Below are positions 1-45 of a DNA stretch of 917 nucleotides, piece by piece. The DNA is from Escherichia coli (GTDB lineage: Bacteria; Pseudomonadota; Gammaproteobacteria; Enterobacterales; Enterobacteriaceae): NCBI RefSeq assembly GCF_003334335.1, contig NZ_QOWQ01000139.1, one strand, 5' to 3'. The notes beneath the pieces were generated by a model, which searched no databases, was not told where the DNA came from, and saw only the letters and a list, made by a program, of their open reading frames with translations. Numbering within the stretch: position 1 is the first letter of the stretch; each line of letters begins with the position of its first letter. Made by a program: the position numbers and the translations under genes.

Positions 1-22
1 TGAACTGTTTTATTTGTATACA

Positions 23-28
23 GATAAT
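23..28 (+). promoter_or_regulatory. -10-like hexamer GATAAT (5/6 match to TATAAT); no convincing -35 inside the window
   Basis: GATAAT at 23-28 in an AT-rich leader. The only -35 candidates (TGAACT 1-6, TTGTAT 14-19) are poor or mis-spaced. A transcription start near 35 would leave an ~10-nt leader, so the true promoter may lie upstream of the window. Confidence 0.2.
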
Positions 29-33
29 TTTAT

Positions 34-37
34 AGGG
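34..37 (+). promoter_or_regulatory. Weak Shine-Dalgarno-like motif (AGGG), 8 nt upstream of ATG 46
   Basis: AGGG at 34-37 is a partial match to the GGAGG core at acceptable spacing. It is weak, and overlaps the second palindrome. Confidence 0.3.
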
Positions 38-45
38 TATACCAC

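Follow-up and report, generated by a model that had tools for sequence, protein, structure and literature searches.

Paired palindromes before an Escherichia coli eib gene as probable strands of a conserved messenger RNA leader

INTRODUCTION

What is the role of two short palindromes that share one core and stand immediately before the start codon of a surface-protein gene? The locus that raises this question is a stretch of 917 nt of Escherichia coli DNA (assembly GCF_003334335.1, contig NZ_QOWQ01000139.1), which we call the window in its whole length. Judged by its translation and its homologues, the window is the last 45 nt of an upstream region followed by the 5′ part of an eib-type gene, encoding an immunoglobulin-binding trimeric autotransporter of the YadA-like kind. 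A reading of the sequence alone had likened the palindromes to a two-site operator for a dimeric repressor, with a spacing that would place the two sites on the same face of the helix. Our comparison of eib loci, using folding and covariance models, leads us to think it reasonably probable that both palindromes are parts of a conserved, structured 5′ leader of ~105 nt in the eib mRNAs, and that this leader occludes the ribosome binding site (RBS).

The Eib proteins are prophage-borne immunoglobulin-binding adhesins, with roles in resistance to serum, in aggregation and in the chain-like adherence seen in Shiga toxin-producing E. coli (STEC) negative for the enterocyte effacement locus (LEE). 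They are described as poorly expressed, with expression rising in stationary phase, in static or microaerobic culture and at 37°C, and it is enhanced by IbrAB, encoded on a separate island. In the literature searched we found no description of an eib untranslated region (UTR), leader or promoter, and no eib transcription start site.

THE TWO PALINDROMES IN THE WINDOW

The coordinates of all features are collected in Table 1. Both palindromes are perfect; their centres lie at 18.5 and 39.5 and are thus 21 bp apart. They flank a −10-like hexamer, and the second of them overlaps a Shine–Dalgarno (SD)-like sequence. The sequence-only reading had described all of this correctly, as it had the nature of the gene downstream as one for a surface protein. 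Its judgement that two copies of one palindromic core so close together are unlikely by chance also holds. The window contains three 8-bp palindromes, against a shuffle mean of 3.4, and any two palindromes lie within 30 bp of one another in 23% of shuffles; palindromy as such is therefore not elevated. By contrast, two non-overlapping 8-bp palindromes with a common 6-bp core within 30 bp occur in 42 of 5000 shuffles (0.8%). The sequence GTATAC is present three times (at 16, 37 and 153) where 0.12 occurrences are expected, and 0 of 200 dinucleotide shuffles reach that number. Thus it is the shared core and not the palindromy that is unusual, and the original observation is confirmed as a moderately unusual one. 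The third GTATAC is probably a chance occurrence.

CONSERVATION AMONG THE EIB LINEAGES

Upstream regions of eib genes were gathered from E. coli genomes, GenBank phages, IMG/VR and gut metagenomes. They form about ten lineages, with the window in lineage A, and are ~50% identical on average. The 45 nt before the ATG of the window are identical to nucleotides 6001–6045 of locus L001, whose numbering is used for what lies further upstream. Within this divergent set TTTGTATACA (window 13–22; −33 to −24) is invariant in nine of 11 lineage representatives, the exceptions being the decayed lineages L035 and L028, and no other 10-column block in the 140 nt upstream is as well conserved (640 of 20 000 column permutations). 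At least five lineages have the perfect 12-mer TTTGTATACAAA at palindrome 1.

The second site is not conserved in this way. Depending on the lineage it is GGTATACC, GATATATC or GGATATCC, the last with its centre displaced by 1 nt; L014 and L035 have no second palindrome. The distance between the palindrome centres also varies, being 21 bp in lineages A and H, 20 bp in C and G, 17 bp in L010 and 22 bp in L022. GATAAT is replaced in other lineages by AAGAAA, AATCAT, AACTAA or AATAAA, and an SD-like AGGG, AGGA or GAGG is found at the equivalent position in all lineages.

The 12-mer occurs just once in the complete 50-kb eib phage PhiR5_1, and an operator serving the whole phage was rejected for this reason. 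In 249 kb of related loci it is confined to eib promoter-proximal sites, apart from one occurrence at −241 in L028. Neither annotation nor PHROGs revealed a regulator gene in the eib cassette or its neighbours; PHROGs gives unknown or tail functions only, and a cassette-encoded regulator was likewise rejected. Because the second site and the spacing vary, the 12-mer is nearly restricted to eib in the phage and loci scanned and no regulator was found in the cassette, a phased two-site operator is unsupported. What survives of the earlier regulatory reading is a conserved cis-regulatory region containing a conserved palindrome 1; a conserved second site and a constant helical phase do not. The variation of palindrome 2 in both spacing and sequence fits a pairing strand rather than an operator.

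A search by eye for sigma-E, sigma-54, LexA, Fur, FNR, CRP and IHF sites at the palindromes gave no match. Some lineages have extra GTATACAA(A) half or full sites 210–430 bp upstream, at L001 5805–5810 (−241) and at −428 and −312 in L010. In L028, which is without the proximal motif, the occurrence at −241 is GTTGTATACAAA (2190–2201), located at the centre of a longer imperfect palindrome.

A COMMON PREDICTED FOLD FOR THE EIB LEADERS

The last 100–150 nt of each lineage, folded individually to the structure of minimum free energy (MFE), give a common P1/P2/H1/P3 plan from differing sequences. P1 is the closing helix. In lineages C, H, J and K it joins a block at about −100 to −82 to the SD region, of which palindrome 2, if there is one, forms part; in A and I the start codon, rather than the SD, is the paired element. 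Three elements lie within P1: the helix P2, the apical hairpin H1, and P3, a short hairpin (UUUG-UAUA-CAAA or CAGA) that palindrome 1 forms. The 5′ strands of P1 and P2 and the whole of H1 lie outside the window (L001 5954–6000), which cuts the leader midway. Window positions 1–51 match positions 60–110 of a covariance model of the leader, R1, as a 5′-truncated hit with a score of 44.6 bits (E = 5e-8).

The two strands of P1 change together between lineages. They are GGA.UAUCCUG/CAGGAUA.UCC in C, GG.AUACCCU.AUGAAA/UUUCAU.AGGGUAU.CC in H, UCCUCAUGGGU/AUUCAUGAGGA in J, UCCUCAU/AUGAGGA in K and CUCAUGU/ACAUGAG in I. The helix of lineage H holds the window's own GGGUAUACC, the palindrome 2 sequence there being paired with the upstream block GGAAUACCCU. 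Palindrome 2 is fully paired with the upstream block in both C and H, and in these lineages the block has nearly the same near-palindromic sequence (GGAAUAUCC and GGAAUACC). This explains how the sequence near the SD can vary in its letters and yet remain a palindrome.

In lineage A the upstream block has diverged, and palindrome 2 can pair with palindrome 1 (16–21 with 37–42, GUAUAC/GUAUAC). A GUAUA/UAUAC helix between the two is seen in the centroid structures of L001 and L018 and in the MFE structure of L010. RNAalifold returned no conserved pairing between the palindromes, and we retain it only as a lineage-specific alternative helix. An RNA hairpin made from the two palindromes alone was rejected, since folds of the short region were no better than those of shuffles (z = −0.7 to +1.4).

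P2 is formed by different strand pairs across the lineages, namely AGCCGUAAU/GUUGCGGCU, GGCAACG/CGUUGCU, GCCGAAAUA/UAUUUCGGU, AAGCGACC/GGUUGCUU and GAAGCGGCC/GGUUGCUUU. H1 is ACAUCAGA-N13-UCCGAUGU in L001, a perfect 15-bp stem CCGAAAUACAUCAGA/UCUGAUGUAUUUCGG in L014 and GUGUCAGUA/UACUGACAC in L009. The pairs of P3 are 90–97% paired; its foot pair varies between A-U, G-U and U-G, and an A-to-G change from TTTGTATACAAA to TTTGTATACAGA gives a U-G wobble within it. This is the pattern to be expected from an RNA stem, not from a DNA palindrome.

A gut metagenome contig (L163 1599–1720) provides a natural recombinant leader: its 5′ part and P3 are those of lineage G, its RBS and start those of lineage C (…ACAGGATATCCATAATGAGT). 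The leader can thus itself contain a recombination breakpoint.

COVARIATION AND FOLDING STABILITY

Leaders of 109 nt were compared with 200 dinucleotide shuffles each. Seven of nine have z-scores between −2.3 and −7.5 (L001 −2.3, L018 −3.7, L005 −5.7, L008 −3.7, L009 −6.2, L014 −7.5 and L006 −2.4), with weaker values for L010 (−1.1) and L035 (−1.5). Shuffles were also used to judge the duplex that the RBS forms with the upstream block. It is equalled or beaten in 4–5 of 2000 for lineage C, 0 of 2000 for H, 33 of 2000 for J and 44 of 2000 for G, and is weak by this measure in A, I and K.

The pairing is maintained through extensive sequence change. In a MAFFT alignment 80.6% of the cells are paired, compared with 34–47% when the partners are slid. 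Cells in which both sides have changed number 46, against 21 in shuffles, and the covariation measure is 0.273 against 0.182; for both quantities 0 of 500 shuffles reach the observed value. P2 covaries in five of its eight pairs in this alignment. In an alignment made with the covariance model (CM), comprising 37 distinct rows, 22 pairs show double changes where shuffles give 14.2 (0 of 500), and compensatory changes are present in every one of the 10 pairs of P2. Variation around both palindromes obeys the rules of RNA pairing, G-U wobbles included. Cells with G-U number 91 and those with A-C 24, and this excess favours the sense-strand RNA as the selected molecule over the antisense strand or duplex DNA.

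The model R1 was built from 19 leaders. In a search of 612 kb it recovered all the aligned eib leaders, at 62–111 bits, missing the divergent L028, and gave no other match at E < 0.05. Rfam 15 has no match at E ≤ 1 for L001 5100–6200, the window, L005, L006, L009, L010 or L014.

A PREDICTED LOCK ON TRANSLATION

The predicted structures leave little of the RBS free. In lineages A, C, H, I, J and K the predicted probability that the SD or the AUG is unpaired is 0.00–0.03 at 20–37°C, and in the window's lineage that of the AUG is 0.00 at 20–42°C and 0.01 at 45°C. In lineage G the SD is somewhat more exposed (0.19–0.27 unpaired at 20–37°C). When the leaders are truncated at −30 the RBS is predicted to be accessible.

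The region is best explained as an RBS-sequestering leader, thus belonging to a well-known kind of element of which this eib-specific member was previously undescribed. The leader would be transcribed from a start upstream of −100, and the lock would keep translation low until it is opened. Candidate means of opening are a trans-acting factor that binds the invariant P3, translation of an upstream open reading frame (uORF), RNA processing, or a transcription start inside the leader. The published poor expression of Eib, and its need for IbrAB, stationary phase or static growth, fit an element that is off by default.

A close parallel is provided by the leader of the rpoS mRNA, in which a long hairpin occludes the RBS and is opened by the small RNAs (sRNAs) DsrA, RprA and ArcZ with Hfq. 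In both leaders a strand ~100 nt before the start pairs with the RBS, the default state is off and expression is greater in stationary phase, and for both activation is expected from a trans factor that frees the RBS. The two have no similarity of sequence or in Rfam, however, and no activating sRNA is known for eib. Unlike rpoS, eib is part of a prophage adhesin cassette, there is an invariant P3 in the junction, and in some lineages it is the AUG rather than the SD that is paired.

Several points weigh against this interpretation. The leader can have an effect only where transcription starts upstream of −100. Pairing in RNA leaves the invariance of the apical 10 nt of P3 unexplained, and selection by a dimeric DNA-binding protein would be expected to give just such a perfect 12-bp palindrome in DNA. 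The window's lineage has the sole good proximal promoter-like match, TTGAAC-17-GATAAT, and is also where the structure is at its weakest, with a P1 of only 7 bp that is not significantly above shuffles (181 of 2000), a weak P2 and a z-score for L001 of just −2.3. Lineages I and K are also weak in folding score. The structures were derived from the same sequences that were used to assess them, and since the CM alignment was fitted to the structure the percentages of pairing are inflated. Lastly, RNAalifold applied to plain MAFFT alignments gave P3 alone or P3 with H1, and never P1 or P2.

ALTERNATIVE EXPLANATIONS

Two of these points lead directly to the alternative that survives best. Palindrome 1 (TTTGTATACAAA/GA) could be operator DNA, bound by a dimeric winged-helix repressor of GntR/FadR type and lying in the spacer of a proximal sigma-70 promoter; palindrome 2 would then be at most a weak, lineage-specific auxiliary site, and such an operator could coexist with the RNA leader. 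We regard this as unlikely, yet it stays a live rival because the invariance of P3 is not explained by pairing and operators centred on GTATAC are documented. The 10-nt core of palindrome 1 is invariant, and TTGTATACAA within it is identical to the core of the GntR operator of Bacillus subtilis, ATACTTGTATACAAGTAT; indeed TTTGTATACAAA contains the 10-bp centre of that operator, with the GT..AC core and symmetric T/A-rich flanks typical of GntR/FadR palindromes. GTA-TAC palindromes are also the operators of Atu1419 (ATGTATACAT) and DipR (GTATAC) (PMC11472048). GGTATACC, in palindrome 2, is also found in the middle of AAATTGGTATACCAATTT, the site of UxuR in E. coli (PMC8092373); with the flanks included, just 11 of 18 positions match. 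As in these systems, palindrome 1 adjoins a −10-like hexamer, a typical position for a repressor site. Literature matches to TTGTATACAA came mostly from Gateway vector papers and were judged coincidental.

The promoter match points the same way in the window's own lineage. Its TTGAAC comprises the base before the window and window positions 1–5 (TGAAC); the whole is the only plus-strand promoter-like match in the 860-bp intergenic region of L001, and has the best position weight matrix (PWM) score there (8.0). A plasmid (pGEM) carrying eibG with 168 bp of upstream sequence complements a deletion. Yet there is no equivalent in L005, L006 or L009. A −35 correctly spaced for GATAAT is restricted to the window's lineage, while the divergent L028 has a −35 TTGACT with −10-like hexamers of its own. 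In most lineages the PWM scan found a recurrent TTGnnn at an unworkable spacing, and a conserved proximal sigma-70 promoter was therefore rejected. The bases in question covary as helix P2, whose 3′ strand explains the recurrent TTGC first taken for a −35. The start implied by the promoter (at about window position 35) would leave an 11-nt leader beginning at the SD. Added to this, the flanks of the palindrome vary as G-U and U-G pairs and not as DNA complements, a wobble type of variation that sets the eib sites apart from GntR/FadR operators, as do the lack of a cognate regulator nearby and the unconserved second site and spacing.

A different possibility accepts the lock in lineage A and concerns how it is opened. 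Leaders unlocked by translation of a uORF or by RNase III processing are known, in coupled leader peptides and in the adhE 5′ UTR. There, as in eib, the RBS is buried in a long helix, and in lineages A and H a short uORF crosses the structure and stops at the SD. The 25-codon uORF of lineage A might be translated through H1, P2 and P3, ending on the eib SD, so that its ribosomes would melt the structure and reach the eib AUG. The uORFs begin at the CAUG of the upstream block and are of 25 codons in A and H, 22 in J and 17 in K. In A and H the stop codon, a TAG overlapping the SD, comes ~8 nt before the eib ATG (ending at −11), while in J it is 16 nt before it and upstream of the SD. The lineage-A uORF is preceded by a strong SD, AGGAG, 7 nt before its AUG. 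Lineages C and G, which have no uORF, and I, where it has a single codon, speak against such translational coupling, as does the pairing of the uORF's own AUG in P1. The frame across palindrome 1 depends on the lineage, reading CIQ in A and H and FVYK in J, and the encoded peptide therefore shows no conservation. For eib there is no known processing site. We therefore consider coupling through the uORF improbable.

RNA thermometers such as those of the prfA 5′ UTR, ROSE, fourU and lcrF act by masking the SD. The eib leader is like them in being a 5′ UTR structure that covers the SD or AUG, in a gene for virulence or for a surface protein, occlusion of the SD being the usual design, and Eib expression is temperature dependent, EibG being expressed less at low temperature than at 37°C (PMC4352079). 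That the leader melts at 37°C and so explains this difference is very improbable all the same. Except in lineage G, where there is a modest rise, the SD or AUG has an unpaired probability of ≤0.05 at 20–45°C in every lineage, and with MFEs of −27 to −43 kcal/mol at 37°C the leaders are far more stable than typical thermometers. A thermometer was thus rejected in silico, and with occlusion nearly unchanged from 20 to 45°C the element is predicted to act as a lock.

That the palindromes are functionless chance features of AT-rich DNA is scarcely credible. Their number is indeed as expected, close pairs are common in shuffles, and one GG-WWWW-CC sequence in four is palindromic. Against this, no other block is as well conserved across the lineages as palindrome 1, whose flanks are only ~50% identical, the shared core is rare in shuffles, and both palindromes lie within a covarying structure.

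IMPLICATIONS FOR EIB EXPRESSION

If the leader does occlude the RBS, then it offers a concrete explanation for the default-off character of eib, with the strands of P1 and the loop of P3 as targets, and it opens the question of the level, transcription or translation, at which IbrAB or growth signals act. It would add an undescribed cis-regulatory RNA to those of prophage moron genes. There is also a caution of wider application, that short palindromes near a start codon can be the strands of an RNA helix and not operators.

One bold extension would link the leader to IbrAB. The invariant hairpin, or equally the 12-bp palindrome, UUUGUAUACAAA could be the cis target of a trans factor that unlocks the eib leader. 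IbrAB is the obvious candidate, described as a ParB-like protein together with a PAPS-reductase-like protein, an activator pair whose action is unexplained. We think the extension as a whole improbable. Were it true, an entire family of prophage adhesins would be kept silent translationally (or epigenetically) and switched on from a separate island, by a mechanism not previously described.

THE GENE IN THE WINDOW AND ITS SURROUNDINGS

The only long open reading frame of the window starts at the ATG at 46–48 and is open to the 3′ end, with a signal-peptide-like N-terminus MSKKFTKTILSSAVAGLMFVSFSSLSA. Megablast against complete E. coli genomes found matches in 29 of 5426, often several per genome, all annotated as YadA C-terminal domain-containing protein. 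The assignment to eib follows from these homologues, which are prophage eib genes and include the founding eibA, eibC, eibD and eibE of the ECOR-9 prophages. They are located 3′ of tail-fibre and tail-fibre-assembly (DUF4376) genes, and the neighbours of eib comprise tail-fibre, DUF4376, orf-156, orf-60 and virion proteins.

The exact allele of the window is absent from the complete E. coli genomes, where no megablast record spans 80% of it, and the allele is therefore a mosaic. The GC content is ~0.31–0.39 in the first part and ~0.5 in the second, with a sharp break near position 620 (window ~600–650). This break and the piecewise coverage indicate a gene composed of a variable AT-rich head and a conserved stalk and anchor.

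Table 1. Position of the eib leader elements, palindromes and other features within the window
Feature	Position	Strand	Basis or remark
3′ half of the predicted conserved eib mRNA leader	1–51	+	covariance model R1; 5′ half upstream of the window, L001 5940–6000
Predicted P2 3′ strand CUGUUU	5–10	+	pairs with GAGCGG at L001 5962–5967; weak in lineage A (three G-U pairs)
Predicted hairpin P3 UAUUUG-UAUA-CAGAUA	11–26	+	arms 11–16 and 21–26, loop 17–20; holds palindrome 1
Palindrome 1 TGTATACA	15–22	+	perfect 8-bp palindrome, centre 18.5
GATAAT, −10-like hexamer	23–28	+	sequence read; overlaps 3′ arm of P3
TAG stop of 25-codon uORF (MRAARHQIFFIYPMLNCFICIQIIL)	33–35	+	uORF L001 5958–6035; stop overlaps eib SD
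AGGG, SD-like	34–37	+	sequence read; 8 nt before ATG
Palindrome 2 GGTATACC (RNA GGUAUACC), RBS-side strand	36–43	+	perfect 8-bp palindrome, centre 39.5
Predicted P1 3′ strand CAUGAGC, lineage A	45–51	+	pairs with GCUCAUG at L001 5954–5960, sequestering the AUG; MFE and centroid
eib-type gene, 5′ part	46–917	+	translation; matches annotated YadA C-terminal domain proteins; homologous to eibA, eibC, eibD and eibE
Third GTATAC, within the coding sequence	153–158	+	lineage-specific; no counterpart at this place in any other locus

FURTHER FEATURES UPSTREAM OF EIB

Scans for more distant relatives extended the set little. A contig scan yielded nothing beyond C-terminal anchors, lacking the motif, of adhesins from Neisseria, Moraxella, Sutterella and Edwardsiella, and a metagenome scan with conserved anchor DNA gave 64 gut contigs and no new deep lineage. 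Scanning IMG/VR with a pattern longer than the 12-mer returned the known eib lineages and an unrelated coding motif of marine phages. The latter is TTTGTATACAC, present in many environmental contigs of IMG/VR (L062–L115) as coding sequence (…TFVYTGN…) unrelated to eib; it forms the end of a conserved gene in marine and environmental phages, and the next gene starts MNKK.

Further upstream there is a −10-like hexamer TAnnnT at L001 5896–5901 (−150 to −145), in which the T, A and T are invariant in 19 sequences from seven lineages. It is TATAGT in lineages A and H, with TAATGT, TACAGT, TACAAT, TACACT and TAGGGT as the other variants, and no convincing −35 was found for it. This hexamer is a candidate for the eib promoter. 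Immediately after it comes the stem-loop that Sandt and Hill annotated (L003 1526–1563), which would then be the 5′-terminal hairpin of the mRNA.

At L001 5774–5789 (−272 to −257), TGTGACTAACTTCACA is a perfect palindrome of the CRP consensus TGTGA-N6-TCACA. Recognisable counterparts align with it in most other lineages, and after them comes a conserved GTGTAAGC block. In the 800 bp of non-coding DNA before lineage-A eib genes, the minus strand carries three GC-rich hairpins, each trailed by a T-run (L001 5246–5263, 5375–5392 and 5542–5563; five terminator-like hits where 0.5 are expected), and there is a repeated ATACAGAATTTTCGTA motif (L001 ~5467 and ~5643). These features may mark small minus-strand transcripts; Rfam gave no match.

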